A stretch of DNA of 43,074 nucleotides from contig JBBUDU010000006.1 in assembly GCA_038057125.1 (NCBI GenBank), positions 1 through 43,074 of the forward strand, in the 5' to 3' direction. Of the stretch, positions 36,028 to 40,751 are shown piece after piece; the stretch's first letter is position 1; every line of letters starts with the position of its first letter. The DNA is from Patescibacteria group bacterium (GTDB taxonomy: Bacteria; Patescibacteriota; Minisyncoccia; Phycocordibacterales; UBA1550). Position numbers and translations under genes: made by a program. The notes beneath the pieces are model-generated. The model did not search any database and was not told where the DNA came from. It worked only from the letters and a program-made list of their open reading frames with translations.

Positions 36028-37095
36028 CTACCCAAAAGTGAAGGTGAAAGCATCTAAAACTCCTCCCACAGGCACTTTAATCATAAGTGTATGTTCACCA
36101 GACTCGGTATCTTCAATAATTGGGTACAGCTTTTCACCTTCAACAAGAACGTATTTCAGAAATTTTCCATCTCGAAAAATTTCAATATTAGTCCCTGTTC
36201 CACCATTTGCTACTATGAAGATATCCTTTGCCTTGTATTTGAACACTATCGTGCCACCGCCTTTATTTTCGGAAGACTCGGCATCAATAGCCCAGCTTCC
36301 TCCGAGATAAAGCTTGTTTAGTTTTATTTCAGACGGAATAGTAAGTGTCTGGCTACCAAGTACGCCGGGTTTTCCATTCTCAAGATATTCATTGCGTGAA
36401 GCGCCAAAATAAATTTCTGGACTACCAACTAAAGATTTTGGAGCAACATTCTTTCCTGTCGCACCAGATCCCCACGCTGATGTATTTACCTCTATCCCAA
36501 GACGCTTACCTCTTTCGAGAAGAGCTTTCTGTATTGCAAGCTCAGTTTCATCGTATGCGCCTTCGCCGGCGTGGTCATACACAATGTACCCGTCAATATC
36601 AATGAGGTATTTACGCGGCCAGTAACGATTTTTGTAGGCATTCCATGTTGAAAAGTCGTTATCCAAAACAACCGGGTACTTTATACCGAAACCCATTGTT
36701 GCTTTCTCAACATTTTTCTGTATCCTCTCAAACGCAAACTCGGGCGTATGGAGTCCAATGATTACAAGTCCTTCATCCTCATATTTTTTATGCAACTCAT
36801 TCAATACCGGTATCGTTCTCTGGCAATTGATACAGCTGTATGTCCAAATATCCAGTAGGACAACTTTTTTACCTTTGAACTCGCTAATAGAAATCGGTTT
36901 CCCGTCTGTGTTAATAAATCCATCCGGAGTACTTATGTCTGGAGCGACAGTAAACATTTCTTTCTTTTTATCTTCGCTCTGGAAAACAGCGTTTGTCGAT
37001 TTTTCTTTCTCCTTAGGAGGAGCAGCCACATAAATGTACCCTGCAAATCCAAACACAGAAAGAACAATAAACCCAATAATTATTTCTGGTTTCAT
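36028..37095 (-). CDS. Membrane-anchored DipZ-like redoxin (TlpA-type thioredoxin plus C-terminal beta domain)
   Basis: TM; DIWTYSCINC, HTPEFAFE, NRYWP, SPEIY.G, FTFG end. Start placed at MKPEII. Confidence 0.92.
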   Translation of the reverse strand: MKPEIIIGFIVLSVFGFAGYIYVAAPPKEKEKSTNAVFQSEDKKKEMFTVAPDISTPDGFINTDGKPISISEFKGKKVVLLDIWTYSCINCQRTIPVLNELHKKYEDEGLVIIGLHTPEFAFERIQKNVEKATMGFGIKYPVVLDNDFSTWNAYKNRYWPRKYLIDIDGYIVYDHAGEGAYDETELAIQKALLERGKRLGIEVNTSAWGSGATGKNVAPKSLVGSPEIYFGASRNEYLENGKPGVLGSQTLTIPSEIKLNKLYLGGSWAIDAESSENKGGGTIVFKYKAKDIFIVANGGTGTNIEIFRDGKFLKYVLVEGEKLYPIIEDTESGEHTLMIKVPVGGVLDAFTFTFG

Positions 37096-37096
37096 T

Positions 37097-37828
37097 TTAT
37101 TTATTCTTCTCAAGAAGCAGGAGTTCAATCTTAGTTACATCAAGAAACCCAGCATCGAGAATCGAAATCTGAAGAGTTTTATCATAGCCGGTAATAATAC
37201 CAATGGCGACCACGATAAAGATGACTCCCAGTGTACGCTTGAACCACCCCCTTGGATCCGCCGCGATGCCTAGGCGCACCATAATATTTTGCCCAGCAAA
37301 CGCAACGAGCAAAAGCGCGATACAAAGACCGACTGCGTAGGTAAGCAAATAGATAATACCGAGCACTGGTTGCGCAGGAAGAACAGTCGCAAGAATCACA
37401 AAGTATGTGGGGCTACATGCAGAGAAAATTGGGCCAAGCGACGCTCCTACAATGACGTCTCCCCAAAAACTTTTCTTTTGCAACCCTTTCGTCATAGCCT
37501 CGTTTGACTTGCGGCTAATACTCGACATGAGTGACATACGCTCCCATAGTCCAGGGAACAAGGTTACTAACCCAAATACAAGGATGATTCCGCCAGACGC
37601 CCATCTCCAGAAATCTTGAGGAATATCAATAAAAAGCGTGCTTGCCTTTAATAGCAGTGTAAATGCAATAACCGAAACCCCGAGAGAGACCACTACAACA
37701 ATAGCTCTTTTTTTGCTTGGCTTGTCGCCATCAAGAGACCCTCCCACAATAACAGGCAGAAGAGGCAATATACACGGCGCGAGAATCGTGAGTACGCCAG
37801 CAATGAATGATATTAATAGGAGTGTCAT
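37097..37828 (-). CDS. CcdA/DsbD-beta transmembrane electron transporter
   Basis: AGVLTILAPCILPLLP and FSACSP; about six TMs. Confidence 0.92.
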   Translation of the reverse strand: MTLLLISFIAGVLTILAPCILPLLPVIVGGSLDGDKPSKKRAIVVVVSLGVSVIAFTLLLKASTLFIDIPQDFWRWASGGIILVFGLVTLFPGLWERMSLMSSISRKSNEAMTKGLQKKSFWGDVIVGASLGPIFSACSPTYFVILATVLPAQPVLGIIYLLTYAVGLCIALLLVAFAGQNIMVRLGIAADPRGWFKRTLGVIFIVVAIGIITGYDKTLQISILDAGFLDVTKIELLLLEKNK

Positions 37829-37829
37829 T

Positions 37830-38732
37830 TTATTTTACTTCAGCAACAAATGCCGAAAGTGTTTGGCTTCCCATCCATTTTTTAATCATTGTTCCATTCT
37901 TATCAACCTGTACCATCGTATGCTGATAGGTAACTCCGTACTTCTTTTTGAGGTCAGCTGAGTTGTCGTAATCAACACGAAGAATTGTCAAATTCCCGGG
38001 AATATTCTTTAGGTTTGCCTTAATATCCGCTTCAAGAGCGCGGCAAGTTGGACACCAAGTTGCACTGAAATTGAGAACAACATTACCAGTTGCTGATGCT
38101 TTCGCGATTTTTTCCGGAGCATACGCCTCGTATGAACCAACTTTCATCATCGCATCTCCTGCTGTCATCATCGCATCTCCTTTCACCATAGCGTCGCCTT
38201 TCTTCTCCATCATAGCTGTGCCAAATCCAGATACTGGCAAATCACCGCAAGAAACAAAAATTTTCGCCTCATCTTTTGACTTGTGTACCATGACCAAAAG
38301 AGGCAGCTTACTGCCGATTGTCTCTAGCGACACATCAAGAACAGACTCTGCTTTACCATTTACTACAGCAGTCAATGGATAAAGAACATCTCCTGGTGCC
38401 TTACACGAACCCATGTGAATGTGGGACGGCTGTGGGATGCCAGCTACACCGCTCGCAACTTCAACCATTACTTTTGTTTTTCCACCCATATCAGTCAAAG
38501 TTGCTTTACCTGACTGCTTAGAATTGTTCAGCTCGCCCATAGCGACTACGATGCCTTTCCTCATCCCGTCGACTTTCATCATTGCATCTCCAGTCTTTTC
38601 CATCATACCAGGGGTGCCAATTCTCTTTTCCATCTCACTCACACTCTCAGGGCGGTCCTTTGACGTATAAATCATTGCTGCTATCACAACAATAGCGATA
38701 GCTACGATAATCATTCCTGTATTTTTGTTCAT
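37830..38732 (-). CDS. Membrane-anchored thioredoxin with Met-rich repeats and a CHRD/Cu-SOD-like insert
   Basis: TM; MMEK.GDAMMK repeats; PSHIHMGSC..VH..SCG; C-terminal ATWCPTC. Confidence 0.9.
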   Translation of the reverse strand: MNKNTGMIIVAIAIVVIAAMIYTSKDRPESVSEMEKRIGTPGMMEKTGDAMMKVDGMRKGIVVAMGELNNSKQSGKATLTDMGGKTKVMVEVASGVAGIPQPSHIHMGSCKAPGDVLYPLTAVVNGKAESVLDVSLETIGSKLPLLVMVHKSKDEAKIFVSCGDLPVSGFGTAMMEKKGDAMVKGDAMMTAGDAMMKVGSYEAYAPEKIAKASATGNVVLNFSATWCPTCRALEADIKANLKNIPGNLTILRVDYDNSADLKKKYGVTYQHTMVQVDKNGTMIKKWMGSQTLSAFVAEVK

Positions 38733-38773
38733 AAAAATCTGCTGTTTATTTACTTATTAATAATAATGAATAC

Positions 38774-38815
38774 AGTATATACCATGCAAAAACGAATGTA
38801 AAGCAATCTTTACAT
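38774..38815 (-). promoter_or_regulatory. Promoter with operator copy 1
   Basis: ATGTAAAG-caat-CTTTACAT (38796-38815) over TTTACA-17-TATACT. Confidence 0.8.
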
Positions 38816-38844
38816 TCGTTTTGAGAAAACTGTGGATAACTTTT

Positions 38845-39242: not shown

Positions 39243-39444
39243 AGGATATTTTAAAAATTTTTTCTACTGGCACTTTAAAAAAGCTGGATATTTTTAGAGC
39301 TAGTAAAATGGACGGTGTGTAATTCCCTTTTTCCAGAGCTATGATAGTCTGGCGACTTACTTCTACCTTTTGAGCAAGGTCTTCTTGGGTAATACCCGCG
39401 CTCGCCCTAAGCTCAACAACTTTATTTTGTATGCATTCTTTCAT
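39232..39444 (-). CDS. Small XRE/Cro-family HTH transcriptional regulator
   Basis: NKVVELR..ITQEDLAQKVEVSRQTIIALEKGNYTPSILLALKI. Start placed at 39444 because the ATG at 39462 lies within the -10. Confidence 0.93.
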   Translation of the reverse strand: MKECIQNKVVELRASAGITQEDLAQKVEVSRQTIIALEKGNYTPSILLALKISSFFKVPVEKIFKISYEK

Positions 39445-39460
39445 AATTTGTACACCGCTC

Positions 39461-39502
39461 ATTATACATGATAAAAAAGTGAATGTAAAGTACCCATGAC
39501 AT
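39461..39502 (-). promoter_or_regulatory. Promoter with operator copy 2 (autoregulatory)
   Basis: ATGTAAAG-tacc-CATGACAT (39483-39502) over TTTACA-17-TATAAT. Confidence 0.78.
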
Positions 39503-39518
39503 ATTATTTTATTGTCCT

Positions 39519-40703
39519 TTATTTCTCAAGAGCCAACATACTAAATGCTCCATACCCCTCTTTTTCCATATCCTCCACTGCCACAAAACGAAGAGACGCA
39601 CTATTCATACAATACCTTTTGCCTCCTCTGTCAGCAGGGCCATCATCAAAAACATGCCCGAGATGTGAGTCTGCGATCTTACTTCGAACCTCTGTTCGAG
39701 CTGAAAACAACAGCGAGTCTTGATGAAGAGTGACATAGGATTCATCAATCGGGCGCACAAAACTCGGCCATCCAGTGCCTGAGTCATATTTGTCTTTTGA
39801 CAAAAAGAGTGGCTCTCCACTTACAATATCAACGTAAATCCCCACTGCTTTATTGGTGTCATACTCATTATCAAATGGTCTTTCTGTTCCGTCTTTTTGA
39901 GTTACATTGTATTGCAACGGCTTTAGCTTTTTCAAGCGTTCTTCCTTAAAAGTCGGAGAGAATATTTCCCAAAATGATGTTTCATTTTTAATGCTAGTAG
40001 TATCTCCGAAAATATTACTGATAGACGCACTGTCATCTGCCCAATTTGAGCGAAAGAATTCAATTCTCCCGCTTCCGTTTTTGTAAAGATTGTATCTGAT
40101 TGGATTCTTGTCCTTATAATTTTGGTGGTATTCTTCCGCGGGATAAAAATTGCTATACGGGAGTACTTTGACCGCCACTTTATTGGCAAATTTCTTGCTA
40201 TCATCTATTTTCTTTATAAGACTACCTACTACCTCTTGTTGTTCTATATTTGTATAGTAAACAGCTGGGGAATAATGATAACCCCGGTCAACAAACTGCC
40301 CACCACCGTCTGTTGGGTCAATACTCCTAAAGTAAACTTCTAAAATCTTCTCGGTGCTTACCACAGAGGAATCGTAGACAACCTCCACAGCCTCCCGAGC
40401 TTTTATTTTTTCATAAGCCACCTCCTCGTAGCTCGGTCCCTTCCCTTCTCCATATACATTTTTATAATCAGTAAATCCAGAGACAGCAGAAACTACTCCT
40501 GAAAGATGTTCATACTCTCCCTCCGTAGACCAAAAGCACCCACCAGCGAGAATGATTCTCATGTATGTTTTGTGCTGTGTATTTTGAGCAACTACCGAAA
40601 GTGGCACATTTTTTGATACTGGAGTTAACAGAACAAAGAGTACAGCGAGCGCAAGTGCAGAGACGCCTAGGACTATTAATTTATATTTTCGTATAATTTC
40701 CAT
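39519..40703 (-). CDS. msrAB: Membrane-anchored MsrA-MsrB fusion (methionine sulfoxide reductase)
   Basis: N-terminal [16 protein letters not shown]; Zn-free MsrB with GTGWPSF, HLGHVF, RYCMNS. Confidence 0.93.
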
Positions 40704-40710
40704 TTCATTA

Positions 40711-40751
40711 ATTATACTCTTTAAAATGGAAATGTAAAGTACACTTTACTT
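40711..40751 (-). promoter_or_regulatory. Promoter with operator copy 3
   Basis: ATGTAAAG-taca-CTTTACTT (40732-40751) over TTTACA-16-TATAAT. Confidence 0.78.

Follow-up and report, generated by a model that had tools for sequence, protein, structure and literature searches.

The stretch of DNA analysed here (hereafter the window) comprises nucleotides (nt) 1 to 43,074 of contig JBBUDU010000006.1, forward strand, of a Patescibacteria group bacterium (assembly GCA_038057125.1), and the subject of this work is a gene string within it for the repair of methionine sulfoxide outside the membrane, together with a small XRE regulator gene and an adjoining gene for a membrane protein (the partner). 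A 20-bp palindrome, ATGTAAAG-N4-CTTTACAT, occurs there in three copies, each over the -35 box of a predicted promoter, and it is conserved in relatives that carry the same gene pair. We hypothesize that a CylR2-like repressor acts at this operator over the three promoters, and that a membrane relay and the repair genes complete the regulon, a model to which we give a probability of roughly 0.7. All genes in the region are encoded on the minus strand and transcribed in the order msrA, msrB, anchored msrAB, XRE, membrane protein, anchored thioredoxin, CcdA and anchored redoxin. The features, in the order of transcription, are as follows.

41128-41685 and 40746-41141, minus strand: cytoplasmic msrA and msrB, without signal sequences, directly upstream and reading towards operator O1
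40732-40751, minus strand: operator O1, one mismatch, overlapping the -35 box of the msrAB promoter and the msrB stop codon
40711-40738, minus strand: predicted msrAB promoter, TTTACA-16-TATAAT (consensus scan)
39519-40703, minus strand: msrAB, 394 amino acids, with an N-terminal membrane anchor (Pfam PMSR 7.7e-46, SelR 8.3e-45)
39483-39502, minus strand: operator O2, two mismatches, both in the promoter-distal half, overlapping the -35 box of the XRE promoter
39461-39489, minus strand: predicted XRE promoter, TTTACA-17-TATAAT (consensus scan)
39232-39444, minus strand: XRE regulator, 70 amino acids (Pfam HTH_3), the last 11 nt overlapping the membrane-protein gene
38880-39242, minus strand: partner membrane protein, 120 amino acids, four helices, no Pfam family
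38845-38869, minus strand: first hairpin after the membrane-protein gene, an 11-bp stem and then a run of T, terminator-like
38831-38839, minus strand: TTATCCACA element, DnaA-box-like, just upstream of the thioredoxin (trx) operator and conserved in relatives
38789-38822, minus strand: operator O3 with its hairpin, perfect core at 38796-38815, 15-bp stem, -17 kcal/mol
38774-38802, minus strand: predicted trx operon promoter, TTTACA-17-TATACT (consensus scan)
37830-38732, minus strand: methionine-rich membrane-anchored thioredoxin, 300 amino acids, 24 of them Met (Pfam Thioredoxin)
37097-37828, minus strand: CcdA, a transmembrane electron carrier (Pfam DsbD_TM)
36028-37128, minus strand: anchored TlpA/ResA-like redoxin, DipZ C-terminal-like (Pfam Redoxin and Thioredoxin_10)

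A palindrome over three predicted promoters

At up to three mismatches, the motif was matched three times in the window against 0.23 matches expected, a number reached by 1 of 100 shuffled sequences. The coordinates and mismatches (0, 2 and 1) that the first-pass annotation, made from the sequence alone, had given for the three palindromes were all reproduced by the motif search, and these copies are also the only sites at up to two mismatches in the whole assembly (472,673 bp in 7 contigs, 82.5% complete). A further seven sites with exactly three mismatches, none of them on the contig of the window, amount to about one per 68 kb. A consensus scan for promoters from 35900 to 41900 ranked first TTTACA-16-TATAAT before msrAB and TTTACA-17-TATAAT before XRE (11 of 12 matches each) and also recovered TTTACA-17-TATACT before the thioredoxin gene (10 of 12), all on the minus strand, in agreement with the earlier reading of three sigma70 -35/-10 pairs. 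At all three promoters the -35 hexamer lies inside the promoter-proximal half of the operator. The cytoplasmic msrA/msrB pair, by contrast, is without an operator of its own: as had been noted, the region upstream of msrA (41686-41770) contains no site at up to four mismatches.

The Pfam searches agree with the gene identities proposed at first for msrAB, XRE, thioredoxin, CcdA and the DipZ-like protein, and CxxC, GCFW and RYCMNS motifs and N-terminal hydrophobic anchors could be read from the translations of the repair proteins, including the anchor of MsrAB, whose MsrA and MsrB domains are predicted to face outward. One detail has to be corrected, namely the start of the XRE gene, which had been placed at 39462; the ATG at 39444 is most likely the true start, since homologues align from this later Met and the -10 box (39466-39461) overlaps the ATG at 39462. 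The leader of the XRE transcript would be about 10 nt long and without an obvious Shine-Dalgarno sequence, and the -10 box of msrAB ends 7 nt before the ATG (40703-40716), so that the msrAB mRNA may be leaderless.

Conservation in Patescibacteria and on plasmids

In a screen of 61 related small genomes, that of the window included, a strong homologue of the membrane protein (E 1e-16 or better) was found in eight, and the motif at up to one mismatch occurred in exactly those eight genomes and in none of the 53 others, while a reversed control pattern was found once each in 3 of the 61 at the same threshold. The seven first relatives all have an adjacent XRE gene and the palindrome, which is perfect in six of them; their partner proteins share 27-67% identity, yet the arms of the palindrome are constant, and its 4-nt spacer is different in every locus. 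When five of the eight genomes with the module were scanned at up to two mismatches, six of the eight sites obtained were at the locus, and both of the others belonged to one genome (G037), one of them perfect and remote and the other, with two mismatches, on another contig. The remote perfect operator (L093 3233-3252; G037:C21:107732-107751) lies 18 kb from the locus of that genome, between a cupredoxin gene and the gene of a 103-amino-acid secreted protein of unassigned family, and near the gene of a P-type ATPase of the heavy-metal type whose N-terminus is rich in His. This setting hints at a copper link or at a wider regulon.

A scan with one genome per species yielded 73 further loci (761,739 bp), nearly all from metagenome-assembled genomes of Patescibacteria, Paceibacteria or Parcubacteria. 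At up to two mismatches, 72 of the 73 loci contain the motif, with a total of 123 sites (63 without a mismatch, 35 with one and 25 with two) against a single site for the reversed control; with the seven of seven first relatives, this shows that the motif is conserved at orthologous loci. Two classes of sites recur. The first lies upstream of XRE in 58 of 69 pairs (at up to three mismatches), 48-61 nt before the start of the gene with outliers at 30 and 101 nt, and is mostly imperfect, in the distal half. The second lies within 400 nt after the membrane-protein gene in 69 of the 73 loci and is perfect in 55 of the 62 sites classed; in 65 of these 69 loci it precedes co-directional Trx, CcdA, DipZ-like or Msr genes within 4 kb (CcdA in 60 loci, Trx in 53, DipZ-like in 41 and Msr in 39), and in two of the other four the contig ends too soon. 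In both classes the relatives have a -10 box 17 nt past TTTACA.

The arrangement of the repair genes varies among the relatives, many of which have CcdA fused to DipZ-like or to MsrA and MsrB domains, or a single msrA or msrB in the same gene string. Single open reading frames that combine CcdA with MsrA and MsrB, or with a DipZ C-terminal-like redoxin, were seen in L022, L033, L037, L040-L042, L051, L058, L060, L061, L067, L070-L074, L081 and others; such a fusion joins the electron carrier to its client enzyme. Across these varied arrangements the link to methionine repair is conserved, and the separate msrAB of the window, with an operator of its own, is one variant among others (in L062 a site of its own accompanies a divergent msrB-msrA, and two perfect sites are present in L070). 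The module was found in 2 of 29 genomes of the genus of the window (G000 and G018), with its closest homologues in other families, a patchy distribution that suggests transfer among Paceibacteria.

The copy after the membrane-protein gene has a second property, overlooked in the first-pass annotation, as it forms the core of a hairpin. Complementarity of the operator flanks reaches a mean of 4.9 bp at this site against 0.6 bp at the sites upstream of XRE, and the mean minimum free energy is -14.5 against -5.9 kcal/mol. The flanks come in 38 distinct combinations among 48 loci, and a T-rich tail follows the hairpin. In an alignment of 49 sites, 86.3% of the cells are paired and 8 of 16 pairs have changed on both sides, giving a covariation score of 0.305 against 0.094 for shuffled alignments (reached by 0 of 500), with slid controls at 0.134 at most; in the window, the intergenic RNA between the membrane-protein gene and trx has a z-score of -5.4. 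A consensus terminator scan did not call the O3 hairpin. The simplest reading is that the hairpin would serve as terminator of the XRE/membrane transcript, its core as operator and its 3' arm as the -35 box of the next promoter.

This finding raises the question of whether a regulator is needed at all, because the repeats might reflect no more than a shared -35 architecture and a terminator hairpin whose left arm complements the -35 box. The covarying hairpin with its T-rich tail after the membrane-protein gene and the coincidence of the invariant operator half with the -35 box are what such an explanation predicts. Since the hairpin could force the palindrome at that position, the case for an operator rests on the sites without a hairpin, and there the distal half is conserved as well, at O1, at O2 and at the XRE-upstream sites with their unpaired flanks and weak folding. 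The confinement of the motif to genomes that carry the XRE and membrane-protein genes (8 of 8, compared with 0 of 53) and the similar palindromes before XRE homologues on plasmids of Streptomyces, Listeria, Priestia, Enterococcus, Staphylococcus and Clostridium also speak against it, and we consider an origin without a regulator highly improbable.

A further element stands beside the operator of the thioredoxin gene. The 9-mer TTATCCACA, presumably the DnaA-box consensus, occurs 24 times in the 473-kb assembly (the copy in the window and 23 others), often as AAGTTATCCACA and about 30 nt upstream of TATAAT-like boxes. Of 65 loci in the relatives, 48 have TTATCCAC, at up to one mismatch, at a distance of 5-9 nt ahead of the operator; the background rate is 1.6% of windows, and none of 50 XRE-upstream sites has it. 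In these bacteria the element may accompany promoters in general, upstream of them, or be the site of a global factor.

The plasmids just mentioned came from a tblastn search that returned the XRE subfamily in 621 plasmid records, mostly of Staphylococcus and Bacillus, from which 12 loci were picked by hand for taxonomic spread, with one annotated DUF2178 protein among them. At most of these loci a small hypothetical or DUF2178 gene directly adjoins the XRE gene or overlaps it, in many cases by the 11 nt seen in the window, as in the pairs of Streptomyces, Bacillus, Enterococcus faecium, Priestia and pMRC01. In the 100 nt that precede the XRE/membrane pair, six loci (Streptomyces, Listeria, Priestia, E. 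faecium, Staphylococcus aureus and Clostridium) have one or two sites at up to three mismatches; the Streptomyces XRE-DUF2178 pair, in DNA of 70% GC, has upstream sites with one and two mismatches, and the Listeria pair two sites with one mismatch each. Nothing else argues as strongly as this footprint across phyla for recognition of the motif by the XRE subfamily. The XRE-DUF2178 pairs of Bacillota, Actinomycetota and archaea resemble that of the window in the XRE subfamily (42-58% identity), in the 11-nt overlap (Streptomyces and Bacillus), in a DER tripeptide after the second helix and, for Streptomyces, in the operator consensus upstream, and they differ in that the partner studied here has no match to PF09946, the DUF2178 family. 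No function or regulon of such pairs was found in open-access full text. A tblastn search with the Streptomyces DUF2178 protein returned only six near-identical Streptomyces plasmids, and a match in Enterococcus faecalis (L094) was considered as cylR2 and rejected, being a lone gene of 101 amino acids with a helix-turn-helix (HTH) domain.

The XRE protein and its membrane partner

The XRE protein consists of a single HTH_3 domain (Pfam, 8.7e-14), a DNA-binding domain only, without a conserved Cys. A profile of 74 homologues matched the structure of CylR2 (1utx) over 63 of 66 residues with an E value of 5.5e-20, and also 9k3w, a 65-amino-acid regulator of the 'PbsX family' (3.1e-20), so that by sequence the 70-amino-acid protein is a close relative of the enterococcal repressor CylR2. 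The first-pass annotation had missed CylR2/CylR1 as the closest characterised relative. According to the accessible part of PMC3709268, CylR2 is a repressor bound at the cytolysin promoter of E. faecalis, and induction requires CylR1, a small protein for which three membrane helices are predicted; the same text regards the two as a two-component system without phosphorelay, with a mechanism still unsolved. The likeness lies in a single-domain XRE protein of about 66-70 amino acids beside a small polytopic membrane protein and, for the pair studied here by inference, in a repressor that would act at the promoter without phosphorelay. There are differences too: the XRE gene comes first here, with the 11-nt overlap, whereas the cyl order is reversed; the partner has four helices and CylR1 three; the targets are envelope redox-repair genes and not a lantibiotic, and the signal cannot be CylLS''.

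XRE is paired with the partner gene in 69 of the 73 loci, and in 60 of the 69 pairs the genes overlap by 11 nt, which suggests, from the gene layout, translational coupling of the two. The partner has no Pfam family. It had been called DUF2178-like, and this description must be limited: PF09946 was not matched even at E values up to 10, nor, at its cut-off of 22.8 bits, by any of eight partner homologues or any of the 21 genomes of the group, although it was found in the control genomes. What stands is at most a distant resemblance, seen in a weak hhalign match to a genuine member from Streptomyces (25.9 bits in Pfam) with a probability of 31.7% and an E value of 4.9e-4 over 54 columns, including the R...DER stretch, and in the Atlas, which lists a DUF2178 cluster at rank 9 with a score of 0.87. 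The likeness to DUF2178 is therefore a lead at sequence level and not a membership. An SdpI-type protein was considered and rejected (PF13630, E 0.076, 13.6 bits against a cut-off of 28.2), the likeness to SdpR/SdpI being one of proposed mechanism only, as were DUF6442 and DUF5693, whose weak matches fall below the cut-offs.

An AlphaFold 2 model of the partner has four helices with a mean confidence (pLDDT) of 84.5, and Foldseek found no match to it in the PDB at E 0.001 or better, returning only generic four-helix bundles. Hydropathy and the positive-inside rule predict that both termini and the loop with the invariant DER motif (residues 59-61) are cytoplasmic and that the loop with the likewise invariant Pro24 and Met29 (NPxxFWMP) lies outside; there is no conserved Cys. 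The partners of pMRC01 and S. aureus have no profile similarity to that of the window (probabilities 0.3% and 0.6%). A DER tripeptide after a membrane helix was nevertheless observed in the partners of four otherwise dissimilar pairs: at residue 74 of the Streptomyces DUF2178 protein (L095), residue 57 in pMRC01 (L096), residue 39 in S. aureus (L097) and residues 59-61 in the window. DER may be a shared contact or switch motif. A complex prediction of XRE with the partner, run with two alignments, scored 0.00 and speaks neither for nor against binding. From the coupling of the genes and the analogy with CylR1, the partner may be a signal relay.

It could also be that XRE represses while the partner is no sensor, being instead a co-regulated envelope component or a protein of immunity-like or toxin-antitoxin-like function, with induction coming from elsewhere. 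The lacticin 3147 immunity locus of pMRC01 can be cited for this possibility: its XRE protein, which we take to be LtnR, the regulator of lacticin 3147 immunity, is 52% identical to that of the window, its gene overlaps the gene of a 116-amino-acid membrane protein by 11 nt and precedes the operon that the protein reportedly represses; unlike the window, the locus has no ATGTAAAG-N4-CTTTACAT site at up to three mismatches, and its targets are ABC-type immunity genes. The best NCBIfam match of XRE is likewise to an antitoxin family, and neither Pfam nor Foldseek gave a structural or family clue to sensing. That match (TIGR03070, 39 bits) is, however, far under the cut-off of 71.65, and an antitoxin of the Y4mF/HipB type was rejected on this account; the partner itself matched no NCBIfam family at E 0.01 or better, toxin families having been searched through NCBIfam and not PADLOC. 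A regulator with a DNA-binding domain only and no conserved Cys needs an input, the overlap and order of the two genes are conserved across phyla, the invariant residues of the partner lie in both outer and cytoplasmic loops, and the cytolysin system is not induced without CylR1. A partner without a sensing role is thus an unlikely explanation, albeit one worth keeping in view.

The proposed circuit and its meaning

The first gene after the operator usually encodes a membrane-anchored thioredoxin with a Met-rich acidic linker; in a few loci its product is instead a Met-rich peptide that stands alone, or a cupredoxin rich in Met (the latter in L082). At least six Met within some window of 40 amino acids were counted in 46 of 59 first genes against 8.8% of background open reading frames, with median Met contents of 6.1% and 2.1%, respectively. 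Such linkers resemble the sacrificial methionine-rich peptides that are coupled to Msr enzymes, the subject, to judge from its title, of a 2015 paper by Melnyk et al., and they resemble copper-binding Met motifs as well. With a Met-rich thioredoxin in first place among the targets, a tethered sink of sacrificial methionines suggests itself. Copper as the signal is a lead only, drawn from the remote site of G037, the cupredoxin of L082 and the Met-rich linkers. The thioredoxin of the window has in addition an extra N-terminal domain of about 130 amino acids (residues about 55-190) with a HIH-G-C motif and no Pfam match, which is common to 3 of the 73 loci (L028, L056 and L080) and was also seen in L015 and L018. 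The available part of PMC3914529 describes a comparable pathway in Streptococcus pneumoniae, CcdA-Etrx-MsrAB2, which shares with the present locus CcdA, anchored thioredoxin-fold proteins and MsrAB; the Met-rich linker on the thioredoxin and the frequent fusion, in the relatives, of CcdA to DipZ-like or MsrAB domains set the present system apart.

We hypothesize that a dimer of XRE would bind the 20-bp palindrome ATGTAAAG-N4-CTTTACAT through its helix-turn-helix and, lying over the -35 box, would block RNA polymerase at the three promoters. The targets would be its own operon (XRE and partner), at a weaker, imperfect site; the anchored msrAB; and, at the perfect site, the operon of the Met-rich thioredoxin, ccdA and the dipZ-like gene. 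Electrons would then pass from the cytoplasm through CcdA to the exported thioredoxins and on to MsrAB, repairing oxidised methionines outside the membrane. The four-helix partner may relay an envelope signal (an oxidant, possibly copper) to XRE, as proposed for CylR1/CylR2. The O3 hairpin with its T-rich tail probably ends the regulator transcript, and the repair operon would thus depend on its own repressible promoter. Motif specificity, conservation, co-occurrence, promoter geometry, CylR2 homology and hairpin covariation are results of computation; to these the model adds that XRE would bind and repress, what would induce the genes and what the partner would do. As regards the shared operator, the local repair genes and the tie to the XRE/membrane pair, comparative genomics gives strong support to the regulon first proposed from the sequence; binding and repression are what we infer from them.

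Several points weigh against this model. The loci are kin that were found through the partner gene, and their counts show conservation, not independent trials. No recognisable operator precedes XRE in 11 of the 69 pairs, and autoregulation is accordingly not universal. The other six of the 12 plasmid loci (pMRC01, Bacillus arachidis, Deinococcus, Rhodococcus, Pseudoalteromonas and the lone HTH gene of E. faecalis) are without a site at up to three mismatches, even though the XRE protein of pMRC01 is the closest plasmid match. A hairpin that has the -35 box as its 3' arm could, as discussed above, partly force the palindrome after the membrane-protein gene. The partner is tied to the repressor by gene coupling alone, and in a search of sequencing runs those containing the locus were all of DNA, with no RNA run listed. 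Finally, the operator is centred at around -38 relative to the predicted transcription start, a place that would also suit a class II activator, and XRE might bind the motif to activate, or both to activate and to repress. We regard this last possibility as decidedly unlikely: all three promoters come close to the consensus as they are (10-11 of 12 matches) and are optimally spaced, it is the -35 hexamer that lies under the operator, CylR2, the relative that has been characterised, represses, and Listeria and Streptomyces have a second site on the -10 box or past it, a repressor position.

A speculative, rather improbable extension of the repressor model is that envelope oxidants would oxidise Met29 of the partner, that the DER loop would then release the repressor and that MsrAB would re-reduce the sensor in a feedback loop, CylR2-like XRE proteins and their DER-motif partners (DUF2178 and others) forming one widespread signalling class without phosphorelay and with a shared operator grammar. 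If this is true, these loci could help to explain the unsolved mechanism of CylR1/CylR2.

The known regulators of msrP and msrAB, as given in the accessible part of a 2026 review (PMC13488963), are the two-component systems HprSR and ModRS (the latter also described, within the part available, in PMC9239216) and the extracytoplasmic function (ECF) sigma factors RpoE2, Ecf and that of A. suillum, and the same part of the review states that these regulators are not conserved between species. HprSR, ModRS, RpoE2, Ecf and SigF resemble the present system in controlling MsrAB or MsrP with Trx/CcdA-type partners through a nearby envelope-sensing regulator (from the same portions of PMC13488963 and PMC9239216); they differ in being kinase/response-regulator or sigma/anti-sigma systems, where here a one-domain XRE protein would act with a small membrane partner. 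In open-access full text, we found no paper that links an XRE regulator to an extracytoplasmic Msr pathway, nor, in line with the first-pass annotation, a description of this circuit in Patescibacteria (the candidate phyla radiation).

Gene regulation in Patescibacteria has been little studied, and the module described here offers a concrete candidate transcription factor, operator and regulon for these ultra-small groundwater bacteria. If the repressor model is right, the regulators of methionine-sulfoxide repair in the envelope would be of three kinds, this one beside two-component systems and ECF sigma factors. The shared operator would also link uncharacterised XRE/DUF2178-type pairs across phyla to the CylR1/CylR2 paradigm, and it may make it easier to learn by what means small membrane proteins act on repressors of a single domain.

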